Assembly: GCA_029838195.1 (NCBI GenBank)
Contig: JALGVJ010000017.1
Location: 32,001 to 96,000, forward strand
Direction: 5' to 3'
DNA: 64,000 nucleotides
Source: Promethearchaeota archaeon
Lineage (GTDB): Archaea > Asgardarchaeota > Lokiarchaeia > Sigyniarchaeales > SOKP01
Of the stretch, positions 15,121-61,691 are shown piece after piece. The position numbers and the translations under genes are program-made. The notes below the pieces were generated by a model, which saw nothing but the letters and a program-made list of their open reading frames with translations, was not told where the DNA came from and did not search any database. Within the stretch, counting starts at the first letter, position 1. Each line of letters begins with the position of its first letter.

Positions 15121-15134
15121 TTAATAAATATTCA
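15121..15134. promoter_or_regulatory. Candidate operator, TGAATA-NN-TATTCA family (1 mismatch)
   Basis: TTAATAAATATTCA about 60 nt upstream of the Fe-S oxidoreductase ATG. Confidence 0.4.
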
Positions 15135-15195
15135 TTTTACTAAAAAAAAGATATTTTAATTATTTTAATAAAATAACAAAGATTTAAGAGTCAAA

Positions 15196-16326
15196 ATGAA
15201 AGAAAATCAAATAATCGAAAAAATTCACTCGTGTCTTGATTGCAAAAAATGTCTTGAGTCTTGCGATACATATCTTGTTACGCAAGATGAGCTGAAATCT
15301 CCAAACGGGAGATTAAAAATTGCCGATAAAATCTATAGTAATATAGAAATAACAGATGAAGAATTAAACTCGATGTATACTTGTACACTATGCGGAATCT
15401 GTGATTTAGTTTGCGTTCAAAAGATTCCCATCACGGAAATAATTCATGCGTCCAAAGCTAAATTAGTGGAATTGGGGAAAGCTCCTCTTGAAATTCATGA
15501 AAAAATAATTGAAGGTATTTTAAAGTATAATAATTCCGTAAATGGAAATCCGGAAGAGCGTCTAAATTGGTTGCCTGAAAAATACAAAGCTGAAGAGCTA
15601 TTTGAGCAGAAAGATTCTGACACCTTGCTTTTTTTGGGTTGCATGTCCTCATTTAGAGTGAAAGAAAGTGCTAGTGCATCCTATGAAATTCTTAAAAAAG
15701 CCCATTATGATTTTAAAATATTAAAAAATGAACCATGCTGTGGAGAATATGTTTATAGTGCAGGAAAAGTTGAAATAGCAAAAAAAATAATGGAGGATAA
15801 TTTTTCGCTGTTCAAGAATCTTGGAATTAAAAATATTCTCGTAACATGTGCTGGGTGTCTTTATGCATTCAATAAAATATATCCCAAATATATAAAGAAT
15901 TTTAATATTAATGTAAAACACGTGATTCAAGTAATCCATGAATTAGAAAAGCAAGGCAAAATAAAATTGAAACCATTAAATAAGAGGGTAAGTTATCATG
16001 ATGCTTGTAGAATGGTTCGAAAACTTAATAATCTGAAAATATATAGAGAACCGCGAGAACTTCTCGAAAAAACAGAAACTTCTATTAATGAACTGAATAA
16101 AAAAGAAGAAAACACACCTTGTTGCGGAGCAGGTTCCGGAATAAGAGGCGTAGATAGTAGCATCACGATTAAAATTGGCTCTAAAATATTTGAAGAAGTG
16201 AATTCAAAATTAATTATTTCAGCTTGCCCGCTCTGTGTTTTTAATTATCGATATGTAAATTATAAGACACAAAATAATATAGAAACTAAATACATCACGG
16301 ATTTTCTTCTAGATGCCCTTGAATGA
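15196..16326 (+). CDS. Fe-S oxidoreductase, HdrD/GlpC-like (2x4Fe-4S plus two CCG domains)
   Basis: CLDCKKC, CTLCGIC, FLGC, EPCCG, YHDAC, CCGAG and SACPLC motifs. Confidence 0.88.
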   Translation: MKENQIIEKIHSCLDCKKCLESCDTYLVTQDELKSPNGRLKIADKIYSNIEITDEELNSMYTCTLCGICDLVCVQKIPITEIIHASKAKLVELGKAPLEIHEKIIEGILKYNNSVNGNPEERLNWLPEKYKAEELFEQKDSDTLLFLGCMSSFRVKESASASYEILKKAHYDFKILKNEPCCGEYVYSAGKVEIAKKIMEDNFSLFKNLGIKNILVTCAGCLYAFNKIYPKYIKNFNINVKHVIQVIHELEKQGKIKLKPLNKRVSYHDACRMVRKLNNLKIYREPRELLEKTETSINELNKKEENTPCCGAGSGIRGVDSSITIKIGSKIFEEVNSKLIISACPLCVFNYRYVNYKTQNNIETKYITDFLLDALE

Positions 16327-16340
16327 GAATTAATACCTAT

Positions 16341-16547
16341 TTAAATCATTTCATTTCTAATACTTTCTACATAGGCACGCAAATGAGATTTATCCGGGTT
16401 TAACCACAATGCCTTTTCATATAATGTTATAGCTTCAAGAAGATTTCCGCCTTCCTCGAATTCTTTTCCTTTTTCTTCATATAAATCAGATAATCGGTTT
16501 TCTGTCGCTTTCATGTAGTTAGATAATTCGGTATAATGTACTCGCAT
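16341..16547 (-). CDS. Small TPR-like protein (possibly a fragment)
   Basis: YEEKGKEFEEGGNLLEAITLYEKALWLNPD matches the TPR consensus. Confidence 0.5.
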   Translation of the reverse strand: MRVHYTELSNYMKATENRLSDLYEEKGKEFEEGGNLLEAITLYEKALWLNPDKSHLRAYVESIRNEMI

Positions 16548-16830
16548 TTTTACGAAAGCATGAATGAATCCGATATGATTTAAGATGAGAGAGAGAAACC
16601 TTGTCGTTTTTATTGATAAGCGATTTTTAAATTTCCATTAATCATAAAGAATCAAAAATAGGCTCCAGGCGTTAATTTTTAAATAAAGATTTTAAATCCG
16701 ACAAAGAATCTTAAATGAATATTTTGAAGTCTAATCTCTTACATTAAAAATCGGACTAAAGATCATTTTAATGTACCGCTTTTCATTTTTTAATTAGCTC
16801 TTGAATGTTGAATGAATAAAATGTCTAAAA

Positions 16831-17067
16831 ATGAGATGTATTTTGTCCGGGAAAAAAAATTCTGTTAAAGATTTTGAAAATGCATTAGCATGCTATGAAA
16901 TCATAAAAGAAGCTCTAATAGGATTAACGGAAATCACTCATGTAAATTTTTCAAAAGACGATATCTTTTATGGCGTTGCGCTTGACAATATTCAAGCCAT
17001 CCACGACGCTGTTAATTGCATTCTAGATATTTATAACCCGTATAATGAGCAGAAAAAAAACATTTAA
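16831..17067 (+). CDS. Hypothetical helical protein
   Basis: 78-aa ORF of plausible composition in otherwise unoccupied sequence. Confidence 0.5.
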   Translation: MRCILSGKKNSVKDFENALACYEIIKEALIGLTEITHVNFSKDDIFYGVALDNIQAIHDAVNCILDIYNPYNEQKKNI

Positions 17068-17460
17068 TTTTAATTTTATTTAAAAAATGATGCAATGAAA
17101 GAATTTTAAAACTCCCCAAGTTTTCAACTCTTTTTACGGTTCTTCTTAAAAGATTTTTTACTCCCAAAAAAAAATCTTCACCCTAATAGGATCTATTAAT
17201 TGATTAACTCCCTTTTTTCTCTTTATAACTGAAATGAGAAATTAAAATATTATTCAATCTGATATGAATATCATTCAAGAAATAAAGATTAAACATGTGA
17301 AAATACTTCATTTTAATCTCATTTTCAAAAAAAAGGGACGTGATTATTTATTTTACTATTATTGTATGCGGACTTTCCCTTCTAATCAAGAAAAAAAATC
17401 TGTAACCATGAAAAAATTGGAAATGCTTTTATAAGAACAAAAATTAGTTAAATCATCTAA

Positions 17461-17474
17461 TGAATATTTATTCT
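17461..17474. promoter_or_regulatory. Candidate operator, TGAATA-NN-TATTCA family (1 mismatch)
   Basis: TGAATATTTATTCT about 26 nt downstream of a TTTTATAA box (~17427) and about 22 nt before the OsmC-family ATG. Confidence 0.55.
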
Positions 17475-17495
17475 AAATTATAAAAGTGATAAAAA

Positions 17496-18005
17496 ATGCC
17501 CTCATTTAAAGAAACATATGAAGCTATCAAAGAAGATTGGAGTAAGGGAGAAAAAAATTTCAACGTAGAATGCACAATGCTAAAAGAAGGAATGCAAATA
17601 GAATGTGTAATGGGAAATCCTGGTGGTGAGCCTTTTAAACTCTTAATAGATGCTCCTGCTGGATTAGATGGAACGAATAAAGGCCCCTCTCCTTTACTTG
17701 TCATTTTGTCTTCGATTGGTGCTTGTATCATTGCCGTGACGAGATTTTGGGCTAAAATAATGAATATTAATATTAAAGAAATGAAACTCTTCTCGCGCGG
17801 ACACATAAATTTAGGAGCCATTTTTGGACTTGATGATACAAAATTAGCCGGCTATGATAAACTTGAACCCGTAATTCGGATAAAAGCGGATGCTCCGAGA
17901 GAAAAAATTGAAGAATTAATGGAAAAAGTGTTTTCACATTGTCCAATCATAACAAACTTTAGTGGTGCTTCAAAAATAACCCCAAAACTCCAGATTAGAG
18001 AATAA
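17496..18005 (+). CDS. OsmC/Ohr family protein
   Basis: IDAPAGLDGTNKGPSP, GAC and HCPI two-Cys pattern. Confidence 0.88.
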   Translation: MPSFKETYEAIKEDWSKGEKNFNVECTMLKEGMQIECVMGNPGGEPFKLLIDAPAGLDGTNKGPSPLLVILSSIGACIIAVTRFWAKIMNINIKEMKLFSRGHINLGAIFGLDDTKLAGYDKLEPVIRIKADAPREKIEELMEKVFSHCPIITNFSGASKITPKLQIRE

Positions 18006-18254
18006 AAATGATAAATTCTTTATTTTTTTCTTTCTTCTATTTATTTCTAAAAGGAAATTAGAAGATGATGAAAAATCAATTCTCATTATGCTTAAAGGGA
18101 ATTTCGCTCTTCTATTTTTAAAAAGTTAGGCGGGGGGGAACTTTCTTAGGATTTTTTAATAATACTTATGATTTTAATTCTCTTCCATTAATTTACTATT
18201 AATAACATGAAAATATAAAGAAGTAAAAATATAAAGAAAGAAAAAAAAAAAACA

Positions 18255-19403: not shown

Positions 19404-19423
19404 GAATTTTACACCTCTATTTA

Positions 19424-20473: not shown

Positions 20474-20487
20474 AGAATAAATATTCA
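20474..20487. promoter_or_regulatory. Candidate operator, TGAATA-NN-TATTCA family (1 mismatch)
   Basis: AGAATAAATATTCA about 105 nt upstream of the ABC ATPase start. Confidence 0.3.
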
Positions 20488-20689: not shown

Positions 20690-21538
20690 CTATTTTAAAG
20701 GATATCGTGGTTTTCTCTTTTCAAAAAATGCTGAGGTCGCTTCTTGAATATCTTTAGCAGAAAAGGTCACGACGATTGAGCTATTCTCGAATTGAAGCAT
20801 GTTTTCCAAACTCGGAGAATCTAATGAGAGATTAATTGCCTCTTTTGTCATTCGTAGGCCTAAAGGACTCTTAGTTAATAGTTCTTCTGCCAGTTTTATG
20901 CCCTCTTCTAATAACTGCTCCTTCTCAACGACTTTTAAAACTAAACCGATTTTTTCAGCTTCTTTAGCATCCACGAATCGCCCCGTATATAAGATTTCTG
21001 CTGCTCGCGCCATTCCAATTAACCGGGGGAGAAAATAACTCATTCCCACGTCTGCTCCACTTAAACCGAGATGTACAGCCGCATTCATGAATTTCGCTTC
21101 AGGAGTTGCAATGCGCATGTCTGAAGCCAAAGCAAAACCCATTCCCCCACCTGTAGCGGCTCCATGAATTAAGGCAATGATGGGTTGGCTTATTTTTCTC
21201 ATTTTAACGTAAATTTGGCTAATTCTCCATTGATGGTACATTTTACGTTTCAAGGGGTCGGAAATATTTAAAAAATTGAATTTTTCAAGACTTGGGGGTA
21301 ATTTTTTTGAATTCAGTATGATGCCATCTTGAAGATCCATGCCGGCACAGAAAGCTCTACCTTCTCCTTTTAAAATTAAAACGCGACAATCTAAATTAAC
21401 CATTAAATGATCTAAGAGCGCATGTAAATCTTCCTCCATTTGGAAGGTGATTGCGTTTAATTTTTCTGGTCTTTTTAAAGTTAATATCCCCACTCCATTT
21501 TCCTTTAATTCAAATTGTATGGTTTTAAACTCCATCAT
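20690..21538 (-). CDS. Enoyl-CoA hydratase/isomerase (crotonase) family
   Basis: RPEKLNA, AFCAGMDL, QPIIALIHGAATGGG and FFEKRKP motifs. Confidence 0.92.
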   Translation of the reverse strand: MMEFKTIQFELKENGVGILTLKRPEKLNAITFQMEEDLHALLDHLMVNLDCRVLILKGEGRAFCAGMDLQDGIILNSKKLPPSLEKFNFLNISDPLKRKMYHQWRISQIYVKMRKISQPIIALIHGAATGGGMGFALASDMRIATPEAKFMNAAVHLGLSGADVGMSYFLPRLIGMARAAEILYTGRFVDAKEAEKIGLVLKVVEKEQLLEEGIKLAEELLTKSPLGLRMTKEAINLSLDSPSLENMLQFENSSIVVTFSAKDIQEATSAFFEKRKPRYPLK

Positions 21539-21880
21539 ATAATACTCACGTTCTCATGTGTCTTAAATGGTTGTTAAGAAAAACTTTTATGATTTTCGGA
21601 AAAATCAAGTATTTTTAAAAACTTTAGATTAATTAATTAAAATATTAAAAAAAATAATGAAAGATATTTATTAATTCATTTTAAAATGACAGTCGCCGAA
21701 TAGTCAAACCAATTTTGGACAAAATTAGACATGAACACAAAAATAGAGGGGTTTTTTTTAATCGTCTTTTATGATCATTCTTCAGGAACTCTTTCTTTTT
21801 TTGGAGCAAAAAATACAAATAAAAAAAAAAAGATTGGAAAGAAAATTAAAAAGACAGACCTCATCCTTTAATTAATATCT

Positions 21881-22735
21881 TCATTTTAGCGGGTATTTCG
21901 GCTTTCTTTTTTCGAAAAAAGCTGCAATCCCTTCATTCAAATCGGAAGAAGTGGAGCATAACATTTGAGTTCTATTTTCTAATTGTATTATGGTTTCTAA
22001 ACTGGGCGAATCCATCGATAAATTAATAGCCTCTTTCGTCATGCGCAGTCCCAATGGACTTTTTGCCAATAAATCACTTGCTAATTCAAGACCGCTTTCC
22101 AATAATTTTTCCTTCTCTACAACTTTCAAAACTAATCCTATTTTTTCTGCTTCATCTGCCTCTATAAATCTTCCCGTATATAAGATCTCTGCGGCTTTAG
22201 ACATCCCAATAAGGCGAGGCAAGTAATAACTACAAGCTAAATCCGCTCCTGAAAAGCCTACTTTAATGAATGCATTATTAAACCGTGCTTCTTTACTCGC
22301 AATGCGAAAGTCAGAAGCGAGGGAAAAAGCAAAACCAACACCAGAAGCGGCTCCCTGAACCAGTGCGATGATGGGTTGGCTGATTCTTCGCATTTTCACG
22401 ATGATTTGAGAAGCTCGCCATTGGGCATAAATTTTTGCCTTAATGATGTCTTTTTCGGGTACATTTAAAAAGAAAAATTTCTCCTTTAGCTCTTCAGGTT
22501 TCTTTTTAGATTGCAATATCGTAGATTCTTTAAGATCTAATCCCGCGCAAAAAACTCTTCCTTCTGCTTTTAAGATTAATACCCTACAATCAAGATTGGT
22601 CATTAAATGATCATATACCGAATGAAGCTCTTCCGACATCTGAAAATTCATGGCGTTTAGTTGATCTGGCCGATTAAAGGTAAGAATACCCACTCCATCG
22701 TCCCGAACTTCAAATTTTAGGGTTTCGTATTCCAT
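21881..22735 (-). CDS. Enoyl-CoA hydratase/isomerase family (tandem paralog)
   Basis: Same motifs, clearly similar to 20690..21538. Confidence 0.92.
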   Translation of the reverse strand: MEYETLKFEVRDDGVGILTFNRPDQLNAMNFQMSEELHSVYDHLMTNLDCRVLILKAEGRVFCAGLDLKESTILQSKKKPEELKEKFFFLNVPEKDIIKAKIYAQWRASQIIVKMRRISQPIIALVQGAASGVGFAFSLASDFRIASKEARFNNAFIKVGFSGADLACSYYLPRLIGMSKAAEILYTGRFIEADEAEKIGLVLKVVEKEKLLESGLELASDLLAKSPLGLRMTKEAINLSMDSPSLETIIQLENRTQMLCSTSSDLNEGIAAFFEKRKPKYPLK

Positions 22736-24132: not shown

Positions 24133-24221
24133 ATTGTTTTACTTTCTCTTTTTAAATGAAGATGAATTTATAAGTATATCTTGGTAGAAGATTAAAAAAT
24201 ATAAAAACGTGATTAAAACTA

Positions 24222-24564: not shown

Positions 24565-24578
24565 TGAATAATCATTCA
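24565..24578. promoter_or_regulatory. Candidate operator, TGAATA-NN-TATTCA family (1 mismatch)
   Basis: TGAATAATCATTCA, identical to the site upstream of mrp (49480). Confidence 0.55.
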
Positions 24579-24624: not shown

Positions 24625-24638
24625 TGAATATATATTCA
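24625..24638. promoter_or_regulatory. Candidate operator, exact TGAATA-NN-TATTCA
   Basis: TGAATATATATTCA within a 20-bp near-perfect palindrome (24622-24641), next to a TTTATATA box. Confidence 0.65.
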
Positions 24639-25088: not shown

Positions 25089-25172
25089 TTTTTTTTTTAA
25101 TTTTTGTATTAATTTAATTATCCCATTACTGCTTCAAGATCTATTTTCAATAATTGAGCGAGAGTAATATTC

Positions 25173-27662: not shown

Positions 27663-28544
27663 ATGCGATTAGAACCTGAATGCGTTGGCTGTTTATTTAA
27701 TCAGATATTAAATGCAATAAAACATTTAGATTTAAAACTCCCTCGATCGGATATTATATTTCTTCAAAAAAAAGTGATGGCTTATTTGCTTGAGAAAGAT
27801 TTTGATAACACGACAGCACCGATGGTTGCGCGATATCTCTATGATTTAATTTCACAAGTGGCAAATAATCCCGATCCCTTTCGAGAGTTAAAAAAAAAAT
27901 ATAATTCTCTAGCATTAAGATATCATGATAAGATTCTTAATTCAATTAAAACGACTGAGGATCCATTATTTAAAGCATTAATTATCGCTGCATTAGGAAA
28001 TACAATCGATTTTGCGAGTCAGCATGAAATTAATTTAATCCAAGATCTAACCAATTTCATTCCCCAGCAATTAAAAATTAATGATTATGAATCTTTTAAA
28101 GCCACTCTCGATAATTCTAAAGGGTTACTAATTCTTGGCGATAATGCCGGAGAAATCGTGTTTGATAAATTATTAATCACGATTTTACGAGAAATGTATC
28201 CCCATTTAGAAATAATATATGCCGTCCGAGCATCGCCCATCATTAATGATGCTACTATGGAGGATGCCGAGGAAATTAACCTGACAAGCATGGTAAAAGT
28301 AATTGAGTCGAGTCCCATTCCGGGTATTGATTTGTCTAATGTTTCAAGAGAATTTAAGACCTATTTTTATTCCGAAAATCACGCCATTTTATCAAAGGGA
28401 CAAGGAAATTTTGAATGTTTACACGATTCAAGCACGATTGGCAAGCCAATTTATTATTTGTTTAAAGTTAAATGTAATTTAATGGAGCGGATTTTTCAAT
28501 CACGTGGTGTTAAAAAGGGCGACTTGATTTTTATTAAAATGTGA
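27663..28544 (+). CDS. DUF89/ARMT1-like damage-control phosphatase
   Basis: ECVGC, GNTIDF, DNAGEIVFD, INDAT, KGQGNFE and KC motifs. Confidence 0.9.
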   Translation: MRLEPECVGCLFNQILNAIKHLDLKLPRSDIIFLQKKVMAYLLEKDFDNTTAPMVARYLYDLISQVANNPDPFRELKKKYNSLALRYHDKILNSIKTTEDPLFKALIIAALGNTIDFASQHEINLIQDLTNFIPQQLKINDYESFKATLDNSKGLLILGDNAGEIVFDKLLITILREMYPHLEIIYAVRASPIINDATMEDAEEINLTSMVKVIESSPIPGIDLSNVSREFKTYFYSENHAILSKGQGNFECLHDSSTIGKPIYYLFKVKCNLMERIFQSRGVKKGDLIFIKM

Positions 28545-29833: not shown

Positions 29834-30763
29834 TCAACAAGCTTTCCAAAAAGTTTTATCTTCATAATAATATTTTTTTATTTTTCCTTTAGATTCAAGA
29901 TCGGTTAAGATTTCTATAATTTTTTCTTTTTTCATTTGTTCTTTCATAAATGTTTCAATGATTTGTTCTTCCCGCATTGGATGTCTTGTTAAGATTGAAA
30001 CCAATTCTCCTTGTAAATCCTTAGAATGAAGGATAAAATCCCCCTCTTCAGGAAAATTTATATTATTATACTCTTTGAATACCTGATTTAAGCGCGGAAT
30101 TAAATCCTTACCAGGAATTTTGACATATTTTTCAGCAGGAGGGCGAATGGGCACGTTAATATCAATTCTGTCCGGTTTTATTTCATCCATTATTCTTTTA
30201 ATTTTTCTTAATTCCTCTACTGAATCATTAAGATTTTTCATCACCATTACTTCAATCCAAAATTTTCCCTTATAATTTTTGTTAAATTCTATTAATCCAT
30301 TTACCATTTCTGAAAATTTAATGCTTGGATGAGGCCTATTTATTCTAATAAAAGATTTTTCATCACCAGCATCTAAAGTTGGTAAAACTACATCAACTAA
30401 CATTAGGGCATCTTTCACTTCTTTATCAGACAATAAACTTCCATTAGTTATCACGCAAATGGGTTTTTCTGTTAACGTTTTAGCATGACGAATTAATAAT
30501 TCTAAATCTTTATATAATGTGGGTTCTCCACTTCCAATGAATGTGAGATAATCAAATTTAAGATTTTTTTGAGATAGTACTTCTTTCATTTCATTCTGAA
30601 TAACCTCCACGGGATAAAAATTTTCACGTGTATTCGTAAAATTTGTAGTTCTCCCTAATTGACAATAAATGCATTGATAATTGCATGTTTTCGACGGGAC
30701 GGGATCTACTCCCAAAGATTTTCCTAATCTTCTACTAGGAACTGGTCCAAATAAAAATGTCAT
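29834..30763 (-). CDS. Radical SAM Fe-S oxidoreductase (COG0731-like)
   Basis: FGPVPSRRLGKSLG, CNYQCIYC, GSGEPTL and ITNGSL motifs. Confidence 0.9.
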   Translation of the reverse strand: MTFLFGPVPSRRLGKSLGVDPVPSKTCNYQCIYCQLGRTTNFTNTRENFYPVEVIQNEMKEVLSQKNLKFDYLTFIGSGEPTLYKDLELLIRHAKTLTEKPICVITNGSLLSDKEVKDALMLVDVVLPTLDAGDEKSFIRINRPHPSIKFSEMVNGLIEFNKNYKGKFWIEVMVMKNLNDSVEELRKIKRIMDEIKPDRIDINVPIRPPAEKYVKIPGKDLIPRLNQVFKEYNNINFPEEGDFILHSKDLQGELVSILTRHPMREEQIIETFMKEQMKKEKIIEILTDLESKGKIKKYYYEDKTFWKAC

Positions 30764-30767: not shown

Positions 30768-30781
30768 TGAATAAATATTCA
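30768..30781. promoter_or_regulatory. Candidate operator, exact TGAATA-NN-TATTCA
   Basis: TGAATAAATATTCA 4 nt upstream of the radical SAM ATG, between it and a TTTTATAAAA box (~30795-30804). Confidence 0.65.
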
Positions 30782-48421: not shown

Positions 48422-49294
48422 TTACTTTTCTAATAACTCTCTAATTTTTTTGACGATTTCTTTGAATGCCTTTGCGGACGCACTATCAGGATTCTTGATT
48501 ACAAACGGTAGACCCTGGTCTCCTTGTTCACTCACTTCCACTTCGAACGGAATCTTTCCCAATAACCTCACGTTAAAATCCCTTGAGGCCTTTTCAGCTC
48601 CTCCCGGCGGATATAAATCAATATATTTACCACAATGCGGACAATTAAAACCTGACATGTTCTCTATTATGCCTAGAATATTTCTCTCCATGATTTGCGC
48701 CATCCTGATCGTTTTGCGAGCATCCATTAGCGAAACTTCTTGAGGAGTAGTAACTACAATGACATTTTCATCGGGAATTAATTGGAGGATGTCTAAGGTC
48801 TCATCCGAAGTTCCCGGAGGCAGATCAAAGACTATATAATCCAATTCGCCCCAAACGGCATCTCCTAAAAACTGTCGCACGGCACCCATTTTCATGGGCC
48901 CTCTCCAAATAACAGGTTCATCGGTACTCATTGTTAAAAAAGCCATGCTTAAAACTTTCAAATTGAGCGGCCCTAATACGGGATAAAATTTCTTGGCGTC
49001 GGGGTCCACTCGTGGTTTCAATTCCGTGCTCACGCCTAACATTTTTGTCACGTTAGGCCCCGTAATATCCACATCAAGAATACCAACTCTCAATCCAACA
49101 CTGGCCAAGCTCATGGCTAAATTTACAGCCACGGTTGTTTTTCCTACTCCGCCTTTTCCGCTAATTACAACGAGTTTGTGCTTAATCTTAGCCATGTTTT
49201 CTTGAATGCTTTTCATTCTTTCATCAATTTGTTCTTTTTTTCCTTCCTCGACCGTTTTCTTTAGATCAATGTCAGGAATTTCATCATTTGTCAT
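48422..49294 (-). CDS. mrp: Mrp/ApbC/NBP35 Fe-S cluster carrier ATPase
   Basis: SGKGGVGKT, WRGP, DLPPGTSD and ENMSGFNCPHC motifs. Confidence 0.93.
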   Translation of the reverse strand: MTNDEIPDIDLKKTVEEGKKEQIDERMKSIQENMAKIKHKLVVISGKGGVGKTTVAVNLAMSLASVGLRVGILDVDITGPNVTKMLGVSTELKPRVDPDAKKFYPVLGPLNLKVLSMAFLTMSTDEPVIWRGPMKMGAVRQFLGDAVWGELDYIVFDLPPGTSDETLDILQLIPDENVIVVTTPQEVSLMDARKTIRMAQIMERNILGIIENMSGFNCPHCGKYIDLYPPGGAEKASRDFNVRLLGKIPFEVEVSEQGDQGLPFVIKNPDSASAKAFKEIVKKIRELLEK

Positions 49295-49479
49295 TATTCA
49301 TCAGCCTTTTATTTTTTATTTTTAGTTCATATTTTATTTTTTTTTCCTTTCTCAAGTAAAATTTAAATAAATAAAGTTCTAAAACTAATGGATTATAAAT
49401 TATTCAAATAAAAAGAATTCCCGTTATAACTATTAAATGTTTGTAGGTTTTTGATTTTAAAAATCAATTACTCTAAAAT

Positions 49480-49493
49480 TGAATAATCATTCA
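49480..49493. promoter_or_regulatory. Candidate operator, TGAATA-NN-TATTCA family (1 mismatch)
   Basis: TGAATAATCATTCA about 185 nt upstream of mrp; a half-site also lies at ~49401. Confidence 0.55.
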
Positions 49494-50093: not shown

Positions 50094-51539
50094 TTAAATT
50101 TTCAACCTATTGAGTTCAGCTTTATTTTTTAATACCACATCCTGAGTTAAAGGAAAAAACTTCCAAAAAATCAAGGTAGCCACGAGTAAAATTGTTCCAG
50201 GAATAACTCCTTCAAGTAAACGAATACCTAAAAGAACTAAATCCATGTTAGGAACCACGGCAGCCATTTTTTCATAGGTATCATAGCCTGCAACGAACCC
50301 TGTAAGATTATGGACGATAGCGAAAATTAATTCATCAATATTGCCGGTAAGACGATTAAGCATTGCTGTAATTCCAATGAGAATGGCCTTTTGATTGGTT
50401 TTCAGCTTTGCGGCGAAATCATCCACTACTGATGGGAATAATATGGTAAACAAGAAAGTATTTACACCTCCAGAGGCAATTCCGAGTATGAATGCCATGA
50501 TCATGAGATCAAATAGTCCTTGAAAAAAAGTCAATGGAAACAACGCAATACTATATGTTAAACCTCCAACTACAAATGCTTTTTTGTTGTCGTTTACTTT
50601 CCTAATGAATTTAAGCCAAAAAGGAACCGATATTAAAGTTCCTAAGAGATTTAAACCTAAAATAAGAATATATGCATCCGAACTCTCTTGTAGAACAAAA
50701 GTTATTACATACACCAAATTTGGTACGATCAAGGCTAATGTAACCCCATAGGCTACACCATATATGAAATATACTATGAAACTTCTCAATGTTATAATTC
50801 CTTTTAATGCCTCAAAAAAACTAATGTCTTTTTTTTCAATTTCAGGAGAAAAATATCTTTCAATCATTATTTCATCTTCACGATTGCCGGGAAGGCTTAA
50901 AATAGCAAATATCAGACAAAATATTGCAACAACTGTACCCATGATTTGATAGCTAGCTTTCTTATCTCCGGGAATTATATCAATAAAAAGAGCGGGTAAT
51001 ACAATGCCAAATATTACTGAAGAAATATCGAGCGGAACATAATATTTTGTGAAAATACGACGTTCTTCTTCCGTTCGAAATTTATCCGGTCGAATTGTAT
51101 TTATATTAATACCCACGAGCGTGCCAAAGGTGTCATAAACAAATAATGACATTAATAACCACCAAAAAGCGGGCCAAGGATTTGAAGAAACATCGAGATC
51201 AGGGATAGAAAAGAGCAAATAAATAGAAAAGCACCAAGGGACGATACCTACAACAATCCATGGAAATCGTCTCCCCCATTTTCTCGTGAATCGCATGTTT
51301 CTGTCAATCAGAAAACCAAAGAGCGGGTCGTTTACTGCGTTGTATACCATGAATATACTCGATGCGAGAAAAATAAACAAAATATTTAAACCGACAATAA
51401 CTTCGTAATAAAAAAGGTAAAATCCCGACATGACAGCGCCTAATGTTGAAGAGGAAACTTGAGAAAGAGCATTTGAAAGAAAGGTCCATCTTGAATGTCT
51501 TGTTTCAGAAGATTCTTCAAAAGTAATATTTTCATTCAT
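50094..51539 (-). CDS. MFS transporter (GPH family), copy 1
   Basis: NDPLFGFLID...WGRRFPW; 12 TM helices. Confidence 0.9.
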   Translation of the reverse strand: MNENITFEESSETRHSRWTFLSNALSQVSSSTLGAVMSGFYLFYYEVIVGLNILFIFLASSIFMVYNAVNDPLFGFLIDRNMRFTRKWGRRFPWIVVGIVPWCFSIYLLFSIPDLDVSSNPWPAFWWLLMSLFVYDTFGTLVGININTIRPDKFRTEEERRIFTKYYVPLDISSVIFGIVLPALFIDIIPGDKKASYQIMGTVVAIFCLIFAILSLPGNREDEIMIERYFSPEIEKKDISFFEALKGIITLRSFIVYFIYGVAYGVTLALIVPNLVYVITFVLQESSDAYILILGLNLLGTLISVPFWLKFIRKVNDNKKAFVVGGLTYSIALFPLTFFQGLFDLMIMAFILGIASGGVNTFLFTILFPSVVDDFAAKLKTNQKAILIGITAMLNRLTGNIDELIFAIVHNLTGFVAGYDTYEKMAAVVPNMDLVLLGIRLLEGVIPGTILLVATLIFWKFFPLTQDVVLKNKAELNRLKI

Positions 51540-51712
51540 TTTTGATTTACATGTTTGTTTTAAAAAAATTAGTTGTAATAATATTTAAATCTTAGTAACC
51601 ATTGATTTTTCTAACATCAAATTTTATCATTTGCATTAGTTTTTAAAACCAAGAAATTAATTAAAAAAAAATCTTTAAAACCAAATAATAACTAAAAAAA
51701 AAAAGAAAAATA

Positions 51713-52894
51713 ATGAAAGCGGATAAGGCTGAAATCGAATTTTTATTCAAACAAATGCTTAAAGAGCAAGAGGAAAAAGCTCCTACAGATAAAATTTATC
51801 AGAAAGACATGGAGGATGTTGGAATATTTAAAGTTCAGTGGAAGATATGCGGAATTTTAGGATATCAAATATATGAAAAGGATAAAATAAGCTACAAATT
51901 CGGAGAAACTTTAGAAGAACCTGATGTTACTCTTGTTATTAGAGATAAAGAGTTAGCAGCTCGATTTCTAAAGGGAGAAGTTTTTGATTTTGATATTCTT
52001 CCGGGGTACAAAAAGGAGTATAAAATAAATTATACGGAAGGTAAGAAAATAGTCGAAACGAAAGAAGGAAGGAGAAGAGTTCCCGCCATTTCAAAACCTT
52101 TTGTAGTAGCTCGATTTAATAGAGATAAAAACTATCATCCTTATATCTTATCAAAATTACCCGTTTTTCGAAAACTTGTTGTTGAAACCCGTGTGAATCC
52201 TGATGACATTGGCTATTACATTCCAATCAATCAATCTCTTGGAACTTATGAAAATCAAACTTTACCCATGAAAATTATTAGGAATTTTATTGAAAAAGCG
52301 AGTAATATATTAATACTAAACCAGTGTGGGTGCAGAAAATACAATGGGTGTAAAGATTACGATATAAAAATAGGATGCATTTACATGGGAGATGATATTA
52401 AAAATATCGAACTTATTGAAGGTAAACATCATTTAGCAACAAAAGAAGAAGCTTTAGAACATGTACAACGAGCCGTTGATAATGGTCTAATTCCACTAAT
52501 AGGAAGGGCAATGGATGAAGCTGTGGGATTTGGTGTGGAAGATACGGGACATTTTATGGGAATGTGTTTCTGTTGTCCTTGTTGTTGTACTAATGTAAGA
52601 AATACGAAATATGGAACAAAGTATATTAATTTTTTCCGTAAAATAGAAGGTCTTGAGATTTCGGTGGATCCAGACCTTTGCACGGCATGTGAAACGTGTT
52701 TGGAATCATGTGTTTTTGATGCATTGAAAATAGATGATATAGCTATAATTGATGAGGAAAAATGCATGGGATGTGGTCGCTGTGAAACGGCATGTCCTAA
52801 TGGTGCTATTTCACTAAAGATTACTGATCCACGGGATATTGATGAATTAATTGAAAAAATCGAATCTCATGTTGATGTGACTCCATCTAGTTAA
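51713..52894 (+). CDS. SCP2-like domain fused to a 4Fe-4S ferredoxin protein, copy 1
   Basis: N-terminal VQWKI...EPDVTLVI (SCP2-like), CGCR...C, CFCCPCCC and two CxxCxxCxxxC motifs. Confidence 0.8.
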   Translation: MKADKAEIEFLFKQMLKEQEEKAPTDKIYQKDMEDVGIFKVQWKICGILGYQIYEKDKISYKFGETLEEPDVTLVIRDKELAARFLKGEVFDFDILPGYKKEYKINYTEGKKIVETKEGRRRVPAISKPFVVARFNRDKNYHPYILSKLPVFRKLVVETRVNPDDIGYYIPINQSLGTYENQTLPMKIIRNFIEKASNILILNQCGCRKYNGCKDYDIKIGCIYMGDDIKNIELIEGKHHLATKEEALEHVQRAVDNGLIPLIGRAMDEAVGFGVEDTGHFMGMCFCCPCCCTNVRNTKYGTKYINFFRKIEGLEISVDPDLCTACETCLESCVFDALKIDDIAIIDEEKCMGCGRCETACPNGAISLKITDPRDIDELIEKIESHVDVTPSS

Positions 52895-53427
52895 AATTTA
52901 TATTAAATTTCAAAAAAATCTTTAAAGAATCGTCATCAAATAGAAAGGACTTCAATTTGGGCTCTATATAGAGCCAAAAATAAGAAAATTACATTATTTT
53001 GAAAATCTCGGGAAGTAGCTCGGAAATAATTATATTGAAATGGATTTATTTAATAATGAGATGAAATAAAAAATAAGATTTGACACGAAATGTAGTAGCG
53101 TTCTAAAAGGGTTAAGTCAAAGCACTTTACAAGTCAAATTTATTAATTTTTAAAATCTTGAGGAGGTTAAAACCGAGAAAACATGAAAGACAAGAAATTG
53201 AAAATGCTCTTACTGACACTATAAATTGTTTAACTCAAATAATATATAATATCTTGATGAAGTGAATTTAGGAGGGGGAGGGCAAAAAATAATTCCCAAG
53301 ACCAAATTTTGAGAGAATTTAAATAGGTATAAAAATTATCCAGACGAATTGAATAAAAATTCAAAAAATCAAAAAATAAGCAATAAAAAGGGTTATTAAA
53401 AAAAAAAGAAAAATCAATTTTGAATTA

Positions 53428-54873
53428 TTATATTTTCAACCTATTGAGTTCAGCTTTATTTTTTAATATCACATCCTGAGTTAACGGAAAAAACTTCCAA
53501 AAAATCAAGGTAGCCGCGAGTAAAATGGTTCCGGGAATGACTCCTTCAAGTAAGCGAATGCCCAAAAGAACTAAATTCATATCAGGAACCACGGCAGCCA
53601 ATTTATCATAAGTATCATAGCCCTCAACGAATCCTGTAAGATTATGGACGATAGCGAAAATTAATTCATCAATATTGCCGGTAAGACGATTAAGCATTGT
53701 CGTAATTCCGATGAGAATGGCCTTTTGGTTGGTCTTCAGCTTTACGGCGAAATCATCCACTACGGATGGGAACAATATGGTAAACAAGAAAGTATTTGTA
53801 CCTCCACTGGCAATTCCGAGTATGAATGCCATGATCATGAGATCAAATAGTCCTTGAAAAAAAGTTAATGGAAATAACGCAAAACTATACGTAAGACCAG
53901 CAATTACAAATGCCTTTTTGTTGTCGTTTACTTTCTTAATAAATTTAAGCCAAAAAGGAACCGATATTAAAGTCCCTAAGAGATTTAAGCCTAAAATAAG
54001 AATATATGCATCCGAACTCTCTTGTAGAACAAAAGTTATTACATACATCAAATTTGGTATGATCAAGGCCAATGAAACCCCATAGGCTACACCGTATATG
54101 AAATATACTATGAAACTTCTCAATGTTATAATTCTTTTTAATGTCTCAAAAAAACTAATGCCTTTTTTTTCAATTTCAGGAGAAAAATATCTTTCAATCA
54201 TTACTTCATCTTCACGATTGCCGGGAAGGCTTAAAATAGCAAATATCAGACAGAATATCGCAACAACTGTACCCATGATTTGATAGCTAGCTTTCTTATC
54301 TCCGGGAATCACGTTAATAAAAAGTGCGGGTAATACAATGCCAAATATTATTGAAGAAATATCGAGCGGAACATAATATTTTGTGAAAATACGGCGTTCT
54401 TCTTCCGTTCGAAATTTATCCGGTCGAATTGTGTTTACATTAATACCCACGAGCGTGCCAAAGGTGTCATAAACAAATAATGACATTAATAACCACAAAA
54501 AAGCAGGCCAAGGATTTGAAGAAACATCGAAATCAGGGACAGAAAAGAGCAAATAAATAGAAAAGCACCATGGGACAATACCGATAACAATCCAAGGGAA
54601 ACGTCTCCCGTATTTTCTCGTGAATCGCATGTTTCTGTCAATCAGAAAACCAAAAAGCGGGTCGTTTACTGCGTTATATACGACGAAGATCGTCGAAGCA
54701 AGAAAAATCAACAAAATATTTAAACCTACAATAACTTGGTAATAAAAAAGGTAAAATCCCGACATGACAGCGCTTAATGTTGAAGAAGAAACCTGAGAAA
54801 GAGCGTTTGAAAGGAAGATCCATCTTGAATGTCTTGTTTCAGAAGATTCTTCAAAAGTACTATTTTCATTCAT
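53428..54873 (-). CDS. MFS transporter (GPH family), copy 2
   Basis: Same length (481 aa) and near-identical to copy 1. Confidence 0.9.
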   Translation of the reverse strand: MNENSTFEESSETRHSRWIFLSNALSQVSSSTLSAVMSGFYLFYYQVIVGLNILLIFLASTIFVVYNAVNDPLFGFLIDRNMRFTRKYGRRFPWIVIGIVPWCFSIYLLFSVPDFDVSSNPWPAFLWLLMSLFVYDTFGTLVGINVNTIRPDKFRTEEERRIFTKYYVPLDISSIIFGIVLPALFINVIPGDKKASYQIMGTVVAIFCLIFAILSLPGNREDEVMIERYFSPEIEKKGISFFETLKRIITLRSFIVYFIYGVAYGVSLALIIPNLMYVITFVLQESSDAYILILGLNLLGTLISVPFWLKFIKKVNDNKKAFVIAGLTYSFALFPLTFFQGLFDLMIMAFILGIASGGTNTFLFTILFPSVVDDFAVKLKTNQKAILIGITTMLNRLTGNIDELIFAIVHNLTGFVEGYDTYDKLAAVVPDMNLVLLGIRLLEGVIPGTILLAATLIFWKFFPLTQDVILKNKAELNRLKI

Positions 54874-55019
54874 TTTTGATTTGATTTACAAGTTTGTTTT
54901 TAAAAAAATTAGTTGTAATAATATTTAAATCTTATTAAAGATTGATTTTTCTAATATATAACATTTATTTGCATTAGTTTTTAAACCTAAGCAATAACTG
55001 AAAAAAAAAATGAGAAATA

Positions 55020-56201
55020 ATGAAGGAAAATAAAGCTGAAATCGAAATTTTATTTAAACAAATGCTTAAAGAGCAAGAGGAAAAAGCTCCGAACGATAAA
55101 ATTTATCAGAAAGACATGGAGGATGTTGGAATATTTAAAGTTCAGTGGAAGATATGCGGAATTTTAGGATATCAAATATATGAAAAGGATAAAATAAGCT
55201 ACAAGTTCGGAGAAACTTTAGAAGAGCCTGATGTTACTCTTGTTATTAGAGATAAAGAGTTAGCGGCTCGATTTCTAAAGGGAGACGTTTTTGATTTTGA
55301 TATTCTTCCGGGGTATAAAAAGGAGTATAAAATACATTACACGGAAGGTAAGAAAGTAGTCGAAACGAAAGAAGGAAAGAAAAGAGTTCCCGCCATTTCA
55401 AAACCTTTTGTAGTAGCTCGATTTAATAGAGATAAAAATTATCATCCTTATATCTTATCAAAATTACCCGTTTTTCGAAAACTTGTTGTTGAAACCCGTG
55501 TTAGTGAACATGATGTTGGCTATTACATTCCAATCAATCAATCTCTTGGAACTTATGAAAATCAAACTTTACCCGTGAAAATCATTAAGAATTTTATTGA
55601 AAAAGCGAGTAATATAATAATATTAGATTACTGTCCATGCAGAAAATATTATGGGTGTAAAGATTACGATATAAATATCGGATGCGTTTATATGGGAGAT
55701 GATACCAAAAAAATCGAACTTATTGAAGGTAAACATCATTTAGCAACAAAAGAAGAAGCTTTAGAACATGTACAACGAGCCGTTGATAATGGTTTAATTC
55801 CACTAATAGGAAGGGCAATGGATGAAGCTGTGGGATTTGGTGTGGAAGATACGGGACATTTCATGTCCATGTGTTTCTGTTGCCCTTGTTGTTGCACGAA
55901 CGTGAGGAATACGCAATATGGAACAAAGTATATTAATTTTTTCCGTAAAATGGAAGGTCTTGAGATTTCGGTGGATCCAGACCTTTGCACGGCATGCGAA
56001 ACGTGTTTAGACTCATGTGTTTTTGGTGCATTGAGCGTAGACGATATAGCCATGATTAACGAGGAAAAATGCATTGGATGTGGTCGCTGTGAGAAGGCAT
56101 GTCCAAATGATGCCATTTCATTAAAGATTACTGATCCACATGAAATTGATGAATTAATTAAAATAATCGAATCTCATGTTGATGTGACACCATCTAGTTA
56201 A
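55020..56201 (+). CDS. SCP2-like domain fused to a 4Fe-4S ferredoxin protein, copy 2
   Basis: Same length (393 aa) and near-identical to copy 1. Confidence 0.8.
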   Translation: MKENKAEIEILFKQMLKEQEEKAPNDKIYQKDMEDVGIFKVQWKICGILGYQIYEKDKISYKFGETLEEPDVTLVIRDKELAARFLKGDVFDFDILPGYKKEYKIHYTEGKKVVETKEGKKRVPAISKPFVVARFNRDKNYHPYILSKLPVFRKLVVETRVSEHDVGYYIPINQSLGTYENQTLPVKIIKNFIEKASNIIILDYCPCRKYYGCKDYDINIGCVYMGDDTKKIELIEGKHHLATKEEALEHVQRAVDNGLIPLIGRAMDEAVGFGVEDTGHFMSMCFCCPCCCTNVRNTQYGTKYINFFRKMEGLEISVDPDLCTACETCLDSCVFGALSVDDIAMINEEKCIGCGRCEKACPNDAISLKITDPHEIDELIKIIESHVDVTPSS

Positions 56202-59464: not shown

Positions 59465-59857
59465 ACCTTTTATGAGCGACAAAAAAGCAATAGGTTAAAA
59501 TCAGTTTCTTTTTATCTTTAATACGAGCACATGCGAAAATTGTATTAGTAAAACATGGGATGCATGAACTTAGTGATATTTTCATAATAAAAATGAAACA
59601 CGGTTAGTTTGGACTTTCTATCGAAAAATTTTTTCAAGATCAAGGGAATTTAGGTTTATCTATATCAACTATAACCGGATCTTTTTAAATATAATTAATC
59701 GAAAAGATTTACCCGGAATTTTTTCTATTTTTGCCTTTTTTAAGGAATAAGAGAATTATCCCTAATAAATTTGACAATAAAAATTGGTCCCTTTAAATTT
59801 CATATAAAATGATATACAAGGTAAAAATAAGTAGTCCGCAAGAAAAAATAAAAATAA

Positions 59858-60376
59858 GTGGTTAAAAAAAGCATGTTATCAGAAGAAATAAAAGAAAACG
59901 AGAAGATCAAAATTCAAGAACGCTTTATTAATCCTTTAGGAACGATAATTGGGGGGACAGTTATCATAATGCTTGGATTATTTTTGATGTACACCAATTT
60001 ATCCCCTTATATATTGACGCATGATCAGGTATTTTTAACGGTCTTGAAATATTTTGGGTTAATAATTGCTTTACAAGGAGGAATTGATGTAATTCGAGGG
60101 ATTATAGGAAATAATTTGGTTAGCTTTCATCAATTCTTGAAAGTTATAAAAGGAATAATATCGTTAAGTTCTATTGGATTACTGGTTATACTCTATAACA
60201 ATCCAAGCTCGATTCCATTTTACAACCATGATGAGCTTTCTAATACATTGATTCTTATTCAATCTCCCTTCGAAATGAAATGGATTCAATTAGCCCTCGT
60301 GATATTAATTGCGTTGGTAATTCTCGGTGCCCTTTCAGATATTTATAAAGCGGGAAAGTTGGAAAAATACAAATAA
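59858..60376 (+). CDS. Hypothetical 4-TM membrane protein
   Basis: Four hydrophobic segments. Confidence 0.6.
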   Translation: MVKKSMLSEEIKENEKIKIQERFINPLGTIIGGTVIIMLGLFLMYTNLSPYILTHDQVFLTVLKYFGLIIALQGGIDVIRGIIGNNLVSFHQFLKVIKGIISLSSIGLLVILYNNPSSIPFYNHDELSNTLILIQSPFEMKWIQLALVILIALVILGALSDIYKAGKLEKYK

Positions 60377-60520
60377 GATTTCTTTTTCTTTTTTTATCAA
60401 ATTTGTTTTTTTCTTTCTCTTTTTTGAATTATAAGATTACTTTCTCTCGGTCTAAATAATTTCAATCAATTTTTTAAATATCTTTAGAGTTGATTCTTTT
60501 AGGCAAATTCACGAATTAAA

Positions 60521-60773
60521 TTACTTGTTGAATTCAAATTTGAAATTCTATCGCATTTTCCTTCAGTTACCATCATGAAACTTAAAATTTGAGGTTCTAC
60601 ACGTGATATTTTACTTCTAATTCATCAAAAAAACTCATTAATCTTTCGAAATTTCTGCATTCAAGTTGTTCCACTGCATTAATTCCTTTCATTCCATCAT
60701 GGGTCATCTAATTTTTAATCAAGAGTTCTTTCAACTCTTCTTTTTCTAATATTGTGACTTGTCCACCTTCCAT
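60521..60773 (-). pseudogene. DUF6125-like pseudogene (nonsense codon, internal deletion, frameshifts)
   Basis: MEGGQVTILEKEELKELLIKN*MTHDGM (TAG at the usual Trp of the WMTHDGM motif) joined to ECRNFERL...VEPQI...MMVTEGKC. Confidence 0.55.
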
Positions 60774-60985
60774 TAATTTCTAATTTACTTTTATCAAACC
60801 TTGTTAATTGATCCTTTATCAGAAATAAAATCATGTAATAACGCAAATTACTATTTTTTAATGTTTAAAACTTGGAGAAAATTTAAAAGTGTTGTTTATT
60901 CATTTTTTAGTAAATATCGCTCATTTACAATTTATTACCCCCTTAATTTATATCAAGAATTAAATTCTTTGGTGTTTGACTTTTA

Positions 60986-61504
60986 ATGGTGTTTAATCAT
61001 GAATCTCTAAAAATAATTCCCATAACTGAAAAATATTATGAAGAAAATCTTAATTTATTAAACTCTGTTATCATAGAATCGGATTTCTTGGCCCGCAACA
61101 CCCTTCTTACTTTTCAAGATACCATGAATTTTTTCAAAACCATTCTACCTCTTCCAGGAATGCTATATTTAATTGCCCTTTATCACGATACTCTTATAGG
61201 ACACGTTTCTTGCATCCCTCGAAGTGAAGAAAAATTGAGTCATGTTGCAAATATTGGATATATCGTCCATGCAAATTATCGTAAAAAAGGGGTTGGCTCA
61301 TGTCTGATGGAAGAATTAATAAAAAGGGTAAAAGAAAAGAATGTCATTAAGATTCTTATGGCGGAAGTAGCAATTGAAAACGTCGCCAGCATTAAATTAT
61401 TAGAAAAATTTCAGTTCAAAAAATCAGGACAAATCGTAAAGGGCATGTTAAAAAAACCAGGAGCTTTTTTGGATATTCTCTTGTATGCAAAATACTTATT
61501 TTAA
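60986..61504 (+). CDS. GNAT family N-acetyltransferase
   Basis: VHANYRKKGVGS, ENVASIKLLEKFQF motifs. Confidence 0.88.
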   Translation: MVFNHESLKIIPITEKYYEENLNLLNSVIIESDFLARNTLLTFQDTMNFFKTILPLPGMLYLIALYHDTLIGHVSCIPRSEEKLSHVANIGYIVHANYRKKGVGSCLMEELIKRVKEKNVIKILMAEVAIENVASIKLLEKFQFKKSGQIVKGMLKKPGAFLDILLYAKYLF

Positions 61505-61677
61505 TTCAATTAAATAATTTTGTTTTAAATCCGTATTTATCTTTTTTTTTTATCATCACGGGCAAGAGAAGAAAATCCAAAATCGTTTAACGGAGTATTT
61601 TTTTCCAACACGAAATATCTGAGAAATAAACATTAAATTTTTAAATTAGAAATATTTCTATTTATTTAAAACATTAA

Positions 61678-61691
61678 TGAATAATTATTCA
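61678..61691. promoter_or_regulatory. Candidate operator, exact TGAATA-NN-TATTCA
   Basis: Perfect palindrome TGAATAATTATTCA about 22 nt upstream of the NifX-like ATG. Confidence 0.65.

Follow-up and report, generated by a model that had tools for sequence, protein, structure and literature searches.

A palindromic operator shared by scattered ORP-type iron-sulfur genes of a Promethearchaeota archaeon and its predicted reader, a DUF134 protein

Introduction

In the genome of a Promethearchaeota (Asgard) archaeon, genes of iron-sulfur (Fe-S)-handling families lie scattered over ~47 kb of one contig, and the palindrome TGAATA-NN-TATTCA recurs at their promoters. We analyzed this palindrome in a stretch of 64,000 nucleotides, hereafter the window (G000:C35:32001-96000, in which G000 is the genome of this archaeon; G, C and L numbers denote genomes, contigs and loci). 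The G000 assembly comprises 4.52 Mb with a GC content of 33.5%. The core of the palindrome is TGAAT-N4-ATTCA, usually in the form TGAATA-WW-TATTCA. Judged from its sequence context, the palindrome is a true shared operator that marks the promoters of the scattered Fe-S-handling genes, its binding being predicted. We consider it probable that this operator serves a small regulon of the ORP ("orange protein") type and that its reader is a dimer of a DUF134 protein. The same regulator-site pair, with the reader predicted, most likely recurs in many other archaea and bacteria.

The ORP genes of Desulfovibrio vulgaris Hildenborough encode Orp3/Orp4, Orp8 and Orp9/MrpORP (PMC6345978). Their activator is OrpR, a sigma-54 enhancer-binding protein that uses an Fe-S cluster to sense redox potential (PMC8359166). 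The G000 genes resemble this system in that they encode two paralogous MinD-like ATPases with two [4Fe-4S] motifs each, like Orp3/Orp4, a single-domain Di-Nase/NifX-like protein, like Orp8, of which a second copy is present on contig C56, and an Mrp/NBP35 protein, the counterpart of Orp9 (Table 1). Further, the Mrp and NifX-like genes are divergent in relatives of G000, and the regulon is small and dedicated in both systems. However, Orp9/MrpORP is a two-domain protein (Mrp/NBP35 plus Di-Nase), whereas the 290-aa Mrp protein of G000 consists of the P-loop (PF10609) domain only and has no fused Di-Nase. DUF5320, DUF89, radical S-adenosylmethionine (SAM), OsmC and DtxR genes are extra in G000, and the genes are dispersed. 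The regulators differ as well; that of D. vulgaris is a sigma-54 activator with an Fe-S PAS sensor, whereas a short helix-turn-helix (HTH) protein acting on a core-promoter operator is predicted for G000. Archaea are not known to have sigma-54. The G000 operators sit at TATA-type promoters.

SipA (IssA) of Pyrococcus and Thermococcus is a NifX-like (Di-Nase) protein of iron-sulfur metabolism and has the same domain as the products of the NifX-like genes at 61714 and on C56 (PMC4463584, PMC6345978). SipB had been cited as a radical SAM protein in a previous reading of the letters of this DNA (hereafter the sequence-only reading); it is annotated as an ATPase instead (PMC4463584).

Two regulators serve for comparison. 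Bacillus subtilis DeoR (PDB 7bhy, 8r7y) binds the dra-nupC-pdp operator as a dimer on a 5-4-5 palindrome, occupies two half-operators cooperatively and represses by overlapping the promoter (PMC11229326). The left half-operator, ATTGAACAAAATTTCAAT, reads TGAAC-AAAA-TTTCA in the 5-4-5 layout, and arginines of the recognition helix make base contacts (PMC11229326). Haloferax volcanii TroR is a DtxR-family regulator that binds palindromic, sometimes tandem sites near metal-related promoters (PMC10783522), and a DtxR-family gene lies in one of the units described below.

The palindrome in the window and in the genome

When the window was rescanned, every coordinate given by the sequence-only reading was reproduced: exact copies at 24625, 30768 and 61678 and one-mismatch copies at 24565, 49480, 17461, 15121 and 20474. 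As that reading stated, all eight sites are intergenic and lie 5' of a gene. Two further one-mismatch matches, absent from its list, were found at 2341, within an open reading frame (ORF) of 1356 aa, and at 53350, between a convergent gene pair. Genes were called crudely, as the longest ORFs. Pfam agreed with every gene assignment of the earlier reading, and the targets are of Fe-S or metal-sulfur type, as it had proposed.

The chance expectation was computed with a second-order Markov model of G000's own intergenic DNA. In the 13,003 nt of intergenic DNA in the window, 3 exact matches were observed and 0.008 were expected, in agreement with the previous rough estimate of about 0.01 hits in ~13 kb. 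With one mismatch or fewer, 8-9 matches were observed and 0.27 were expected. The exact palindrome occurs only four times in the genome, and three of these copies are in the window; the fourth, at C89:12473, precedes a DUF5320 paralog by 111 nt. Each of the four stands before a gene of the DUF5320, NifX-like or radical SAM family. In the whole genome, 24-25 intergenic matches with one mismatch or fewer were found, compared with 16.6 expected, and the excess was located in the window and on contigs C89 and C56. The modest excess suggests that the regulon is small. In a set of 13 same-family genomes, which as relatives are not independent samples, the motif was found 69 times and its reversed control 9 times.

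Conservation of the operator and dispersal of the cluster

The site persists at orthologous promoters in more than 10 genera, with flanking DNA that has diverged. Every DUF5320(-DtxR) ortholog locus carried the site. Of 17 Mrp promoters, 13 had it, mostly 170-200 nt ahead of the gene, and of 13 OsmC promoters, 7 had it, at -21 to -110 (exact in G008 and G010). Exact sites lay upstream of NifX-like orthologs in G001, G005, G006, G008, L196 and L198, and recurrent exact sites preceded DUF5320 as well as both NifX-like genes in G001, G005, G006, G008, G010, G019 and G026. In the DNA around the exact hits of six relatives, the downstream genes were DUF5320, both NifX-like genes, Mrp and OsmC. Conservation therefore sustained the earlier assignment of the Mrp, OsmC, NifX-like and DUF5320 sites to one regulon. 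Of the other sites assigned to it, that upstream of the ATP-binding cassette (ABC) ATPase gene was not conserved, being found at one of eight orthologous promoters and at none of the other seven, and that of the HdrD-like gene was weak (one-mismatch site in 3 of 11 orthologs).

Searching with an alignment of DUF5320 yielded 80 loci, which came from many anaerobic phyla of both bacteria and archaea. Most of them contained DUF5320, one or two NifX-like genes, two MinD/ferredoxin ATPase genes, Mrp, DUF89 and radical SAM genes, and often DUF134. Its gene content identifies the set as the ORP-type cluster that is widespread among anaerobic Bacteria and Archaea. The clustering of these families in anaerobes, which the sequence-only reading had mentioned, was observed, and its suggestion of an Asgard-specific system was not upheld.

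In another Promethearchaeota metagenome-assembled genome (MAG), a compact block of ~4.4 kb (L196) contains DUF5320, DtxR, radical SAM, Mrp and NifX in divergent orientation, and COG1149. Mrp and NifX are divergent neighbors with one common site in G001, G005 and G006, and Mrp is followed by the radical SAM gene in G005 (after 56 nt), G006 and L196. The corresponding distances in G000 are ~17.6 kb from radical SAM to Mrp and ~12 kb from Mrp to NifX. Within the latter gap lies a tandem duplication (50094-52894 and 53428-56201, 91% DNA identity), of which each unit is a divergent pair encoding a 481-aa major facilitator superfamily transporter and a 393-aa protein whose C-terminal part has 4Fe-4S motifs; the duplicated proteins are 92% and 90% identical. 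The compact arrangement in relatives and the presence of an operator on each G000 fragment support the view that insertions spread an ancestral compact cluster in G000 and that each fragment keeps its own operator, as had been suggested for the ~47-kb span. When an operon cluster breaks up, operators may accordingly be retained, or re-created, on each fragment. An origin of the separate Mrp and NifX sites from a duplicated intergenic region was examined, and the similarity was weak (score 29).

A DUF134 protein as the predicted reader

The G000 genome contains a single DUF134 gene, on another contig (C82:462-887, 141 aa; PF02001 match at C82:618-878, E 3e-21). Its product has an HTH of the sigma-70-region-4/DeoR type with the recognition helix S-Q-P-T-F-S-R-I-L and a C-terminal CxxC...CxxC ribbon. 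DUF134 was present in all 31 relatives searched, and all 29 readable Promethearchaeota DUF134 helices had the form S-Q-x-T. The DUF134 gene lies under the motif or inside the cluster in G004, G006, G016, G017, G019 and G026, and the sister-family cluster contains DUF134 (PF02001). In two archaeal MAGs that are unrelated (L252 and L259), DUF5320 likewise has exact copies of the palindrome in front of it, and the locus contains DUF134 and no DtxR. In bacterial operons led by DUF134 (L242, L258 and L270), TGAAC-N4-GTTCA overlaps the -10 box and the start of the operon, and cluster genes of Bacteroidales and Actinobacteria loci have the same sequence upstream. A 5-4-5 palindrome, TGAAY-N4-RTTCA, was thus found at promoters of DUF5320, NifX-like, Mrp or MinD-ferredoxin genes.

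The arm base of the palindrome covaried with the residue at the first specificity position of the DUF134 recognition helix. S-R-x-T helices occurred with TGAAC...GTTCA arms (L215, L239, L242, L258, L270 and L331), and S-Q-x-T helices with TGAAT...ATTCA arms (L252, L259 and Promethearchaeota). Where the next residue was changed, the arms were different again: S-R-G-T occurred with TGTGC and S-R-Q-T with TGAGC. The SQPT helix and TGAAT arms of G000 are consistent with a Gln-T pairing. We then examined this covariation prospectively by searching for DUF134 in 101 genomes of the class to which the L259 genome belongs (small, DPANN-type) and for palindromes within 1.5 kb. Of 29 Q-type DPANN loci, 18 had a perfect TGAAT-N4-ATTCA and none had TGAAC; among three R-type loci from other lineages, TGAAC was found in two and TGAAT in none.

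The nearest solved homolog of the DUF134 HTH was the DNA-binding domain of B. subtilis DeoR (7bhy, phmmer E 5.7e-4). A Foldseek search of the PDB with the AlphaFold model (HTH pLDDT >95) gave no hit at E <= 0.001, the domain being short; the local matches were 7bhy and sigma region 4, and that to 7bhy had a root-mean-square deviation of 0.7 A over 41 residues with 41% identity. In the model, a small beta ribbon follows the HTH. The recognition helices are nearly identical (ISRPTVSRLL in DeoR and ISQPTFSRIL in DUF134). They differ in that the helix of DUF134 starts with Gln instead of Arg, which matches the T instead of C in the operator arm. The 141-aa DUF134 protein has a four-Cys ribbon and no SorC sugar-phosphate effector domain. 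It thus differs in architecture from the SorC/DeoR family, which combines an HTH with a C-terminal effector domain of ~260 aa; only the HTH matches. Further, its predicted targets are Fe-S-type genes with archaeal promoters. Taken together, the phyletic pattern, the helix-operator covariation and the homology with DeoR point to DUF134, not DtxR, as the reader, and from them we infer that DUF134 binds the palindrome physically.

Proposed mode of action and alternative explanations

The G000 regulon would comprise DUF5320 and the DtxR-like gene, radical SAM, Mrp, the NifX-like gene with the two MinD/ferredoxin ATPase genes, OsmC and probably the HdrD-like gene; outside the window, it would include the NifX-like gene on C56 and two DUF5320 copies on C89. 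A DUF134 dimer would read the palindrome, and the Gln at the start of its helix would pair with the A:T base pair that sets TGAAT apart from the TGAAC of bacteria. The proximal site of the DUF5320 promoters directly adjoins the 5' edge of the region of the TATA box and the transcription factor B (TFB) recognition element (BRE). For NifX (61678), radical SAM (30768) and OsmC (17461), the site has a TATA-like box on one side and the start codon on the other, the placement that the sequence-only reading had regarded as that of a repressor. Bound DUF134 may thus block TATA-binding protein (TBP)/TFB or RNA polymerase and thereby repress transcription; the positions of the sites and the bacterial operators over the -10 box favor repression. 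The tandem DUF5320 sites, 60-61 bp apart, suggest cooperative binding. The signal may be Fe-S, metal or redox status perceived via the four cysteines of DUF134; these cysteines and the analogy with OrpR suggest, by inference only, an Fe-S or redox signal.

Several points weigh against this model. The DUF134 gene of G000 has no canonical site upstream and only split half-sites; at C82:888-935 (L174, minus strand), TGAATA and TATTCA are 16 nt apart rather than 2. Only about one-third of the DUF134 genes in the same family are under a site, and 11 of the 29 Q-type DPANN loci lacked a perfect TGAAT palindrome within 1.5 kb. The DtxR-ortholog locus carries the motif in 11 of 11 genomes, directly behind a motif-bearing DUF5320 in nine, which is the pattern expected of an autoregulated factor. 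The DUF5320 site is upstream of the TATA box, a position that may mean activation in some archaeal systems. Finally, the ORF calls are crude.

The simplest rival is that AT-rich palindromes arose by chance in AT-rich intergenic DNA and were chosen post hoc. The genome-wide count of relaxed matches exceeds expectation by a modest margin only, and the ABC site and the matches at 53350 and 2341 do resemble chance, but the three exact copies in the window, the location of all four exact genomic copies at cluster families, the excess over the reversed control and the retention of sites at orthologous promoters across genera, families and phyla leave this account hardly credible. For the core sites, the conservation data already refute it. 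A more substantial rival is the DtxR-family protein encoded at 25173, which had been put forward as the regulator and which would bind the palindrome, autoregulate DUF5320-DtxR and repress the other genes upon a metal signal. It draws on the motif at all 11 ortholog loci of the family and at five MAG loci (L194-L197 and L199), on the position of DtxR, mostly behind a DUF5320 gene whose promoter has the motif, on a C-x-x-E-H pattern kept where MntR has the metal ligands E-x-x-E-H, and on a feoA gene with a site ~190 nt upstream in two sister-family genomes. Further, DtxR-family dimers bind palindromes, as TroR does on tandem sites (PMC10783522). However, this TroR motif, TTTAGGC-N3-CCTAAA, is unrelated to the palindrome, the G000 targets are not uptake genes, and the distribution of the G000 motif does not follow that of this DtxR. 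The motif occurs at the same families where the ortholog was not found (G004, G009, G010, G019, G026 and L198); in L198, DUF5320 is directly followed by Mrp/NifX. It also occurs in L252 and L259 and in 18 DPANN loci, and four of the five site-bearing DPANN genomes, which are incomplete, had no match to the DtxR N-terminal domain above the Pfam cut-off. No motif was found at loci of paralogous DtxR genes, bacterial clusters without DtxR have an analogous operator, the operator covaries with the DUF134 helix, and a run of 7 to 16 T separates DUF5320 from DtxR in the ortholog loci. On the motif distribution, the bacterial operators and the DUF134 covariation, an indirect test, we downgraded this DtxR as the candidate regulator and consider it unlikely to be the reader. 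It is probably a downstream member of the unit, and an electrophoretic mobility shift assay with this protein alone would probably be negative.

A third account retains DUF134 as the reader and makes it an activator or a dual regulator, which would activate from sites upstream of TATA/BRE (DUF5320) and repress from sites downstream (NifX, radical SAM and OsmC). The archaeal regulators SurR and TrmBL1 are known to activate or repress according to the position of their site, and in many genomes 2-8 nt lie between the end of the proximal DUF5320 site and the TATA-like box downstream of it. TroR likewise both represses and activates (PMC10783522). However, a site so near the TATA box overlaps the BRE, which favors occlusion, and the bacterial operator over the -10 box and start of DUF134's own operon (L242, L258 and L270) is a typical repressor layout. 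We therefore regard activation or dual action as rather improbable and prefer repression by DUF134.

Two other candidates were rejected. Lrp/AsnC genes lie beside the cluster in G019 and G026 and are not conserved elsewhere. The Rex-type operator has the spacing TGAA-N4-TTCA. Because the spacing here is TGAA-N6-TTCA, a Rex-type operator was set aside on spacing alone.

Implications for DUF134 and ORP-type systems

Literature searches, with incomplete coverage, found no functional study of DUF134/UPF0251 or DUF5320. DUF134/UPF0251 is a large family without a described function, and ORP-type clusters are common in anaerobes, their role being unsolved. We tentatively propose, as a possibility, that DUF134 proteins are cross-domain repressors dedicated to ORP-type genes with a one-residue operator code (Gln-T, Arg-C), that four-Cys forms, such as that of G000, sense iron-sulfur or redox status directly and that, in Promethearchaeota, DUF134 forms the upper tier and a DtxR-type metal regulator the lower tier of a cascade by which a scattered Fe-S system is held together. 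The operator, the predicted specificity residue and the target list provide direct experimental handles, and identifying the derepressing signal would help to reveal the purpose of the ORP-type system. Regulons legible from sequence alone, as this one is, are rare in Asgard archaea.

The DUF5320-DtxR locus

The features of the window are listed in Table 1. The proximal operator of the DUF5320 promoter ends 5 nt before the TTTATATA box and 78 nt before the DUF5320 ATG. In the DUF5320 ortholog loci, 2-8 nt separate the end of the proximal copy from a TATA-like box and ~25-95 nt separate it from the start of DUF5320; most loci have paired sites 60-61 bp apart (start to start), and the flanks of the operators are unalignable across L014-L024. 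The DUF5320 protein has an MPGGDGTGP... N-terminus, an RG-rich middle and a coiled-coil C-terminus.

Table 1. Predicted operators and genes in the window (positions count from the first letter of the window)
Feature	Position	Strand	Remarks
HdrD-like site	15121..15134	.	One mismatch; 61 nt upstream of the HdrD-like gene
HdrD-like CCG-domain/2x[4Fe-4S] protein	15196..16326	+	Pfam PF02754 and Fer4 families
OsmC site	17461..17474	.	One mismatch; 21 nt upstream of OsmC
OsmC-family thiol peroxidase-like protein	17496..18005	+	Pfam PF02566
ABC ATPase site	20474..20487	.	One mismatch; upstream of ABC ATPase
Distal operator, DUF5320 promoter	24565..24578	.	TGAATAATCATTCA; core TGAAT-N4-ATTCA exact
Proximal operator, DUF5320 promoter	24625..24638	.	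Exact; same-position site in L014-L024, L194-L199
DUF5320 protein, 123 aa	24717..25088	+	Pfam PF17253, E 1.4e-29
Short DtxR/MntR-family regulator, 124 aa	25173..25547	+	Pfam PF01325, E 8.9e-18; PF02742, E 3.5e-7
DUF89/ARMT1-like protein	27663..28544	+	Pfam PF01937, E 2.6e-55
Radical SAM protein of the cluster	29834..30763	-	Pfam PF04055
Radical SAM operator	30768..30781	.	Exact; between TTTTATAAAA box and ATG, 4 nt from ATG
Mrp/NBP35-type Fe-S carrier ATPase	48422..49294	-	Pfam PF10609, E 3.7e-92; Mrp/NUBPL
Mrp operator	49480..49493	.	Core exact; 185 nt from ATG, abuts TTTTTATAAT box (gene strand)
NifX-like/COG1149 operon operator	61678..61691	.	Exact; between TATA-like box and ATG (22 nt)
NifX-like (Nitro_FeMo-Co/Di-Nase) protein, Orp8/IssA-type domain	61714..62169	+	Pfam PF02579, E 2.1e-15
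MinD/CbiA-type ATPase with inserted 2x[4Fe-4S] ferredoxin motif (COG1149; Orp3/Orp4-like)	62209..63114	+	Pfam CbiA and Fer4
Second COG1149-type ATPase	63139..63999	+	Pfam ParA/CbiA and Fer4; runs past the window end

The DtxR-family protein consists of an N-terminal winged HTH (PF01325) and a dimerization/metal-binding domain (PF02742). Its nearest solved relatives are MntR proteins (E 2e-13), and in the alignment its segment ...CCKIEHH... places C-x-x-E-H at the MntR ligands. In our own numbering of B. subtilis MntR, the equivalents of Glu11 and His77 are presumably Lys and Tyr. Orthologs were found in 11 of 18 same-family genomes (52-61% identity, 124-134 aa), with one or two palindrome copies at each locus. 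DtxR directly follows DUF5320 in nine of these 11 (L014-L021 and L024), as it does in the five other Promethearchaeota MAGs.

Between DUF5320 and DtxR, G000 has a run of ten T (window 25089-25105), and a run of 7-16 T right after the DUF5320 stop is conserved across genera (L014-L021 and L194-L199). In archaea, a T-run can terminate transcription. The run may thus act as a terminator or attenuator and so fix the ratio of DUF5320 to DtxR, and its position suggests that the DtxR gene may be transcribed only by read-through or from its own promoter. A short palindrome, TCAATAATTGA, lies at window 25147-25157, 16 nt upstream of the DtxR start; it was not conserved in the ortholog gaps compared and is probably meaningless.

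A second, partly decayed DUF5320-DtxR unit was found at C89:12473-13992 (L001 3473-4992). It contains a truncated DUF5320 of 72 aa, a DUF5320 of 136 aa and a DtxR fragment, which is 69% identical over residues 2-65 and has two in-frame TAA stops. Both DUF5320 genes retain an operator beside a TATA-like box; the core-exact copy at C89:13135 lies 83 nt upstream of the third DUF5320 gene, which is followed by the DtxR fragment.

Other sites and side observations

The second NifX-like gene of G000 (C56:122692-123093) has CGAATAATTATTCA 61 nt upstream. In G007, where it neighbors Mrp, and in G010 and G023, OsmC shows linkage to the cluster; judging from this linkage and from its orthologous promoters, the 17461 site is likely functional and OsmC likely a regulon member. 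The HdrD-like gene directly follows DtxR in G007, and it is at best a weak or variable member. Because only one of eight orthologous promoters has it, and ~0.27 matches with one mismatch or fewer are expected at random in the intergenic DNA of the window, the ABC site at 20474 is probably a chance match. A direct site at the radical SAM promoter was found in 1 of 13 orthologs, namely in G000 only. DUF89 is a usual member of the conserved cluster in many taxa, and no site was found upstream of the DUF89 gene at 27663. The distance of the Mrp operator from the ATG (window 49295-49479), which is 170-200 nt in most same-family relatives, implies either that the leader is long and conserved or that a second promoter, free of this regulation, lies nearer the gene.

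In some relatives only, genes for a thioredoxin, an Oxidored_q6 protein and a Prismane-family protein lay downstream of exact hits. Thioredoxin, Oxidored_q6, Prismane/Hcp, pyridoxal phosphate (PLP)-decarboxylase and FeoA were rejected as members of the G000 regulon because their sites occur only in some relatives and none in G000. In the sister-family genomes G026 (G026:C1:3787112, L149) and G019 (G019:C66:6239, L153), an exact site lies ~190 nt upstream of the small FeoA gene and ties the regulon to ferrous iron uptake there; the FeoA gene of G000 (C92:99461-99739) is without a site.

On one contig of a GC-rich genome from a related family (G023:C442:309-4121; L120, L278), the DUF134, DtxR, radical SAM and OsmC genes are co-directional. 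This contig has no 14-bp TGAAT palindrome; the 10-bp TGAATATTCA lies immediately upstream of OsmC, and the operator may be different in this family. In the window, two enoyl-CoA hydratase paralogs and a 3-hydroxyacyl-CoA dehydrogenase gene are interleaved with the cluster genes (20690-22735 and 30856-31677). The hydratase gene has no site in G000, and its ortholog in G012 has an exact site 99 nt upstream.

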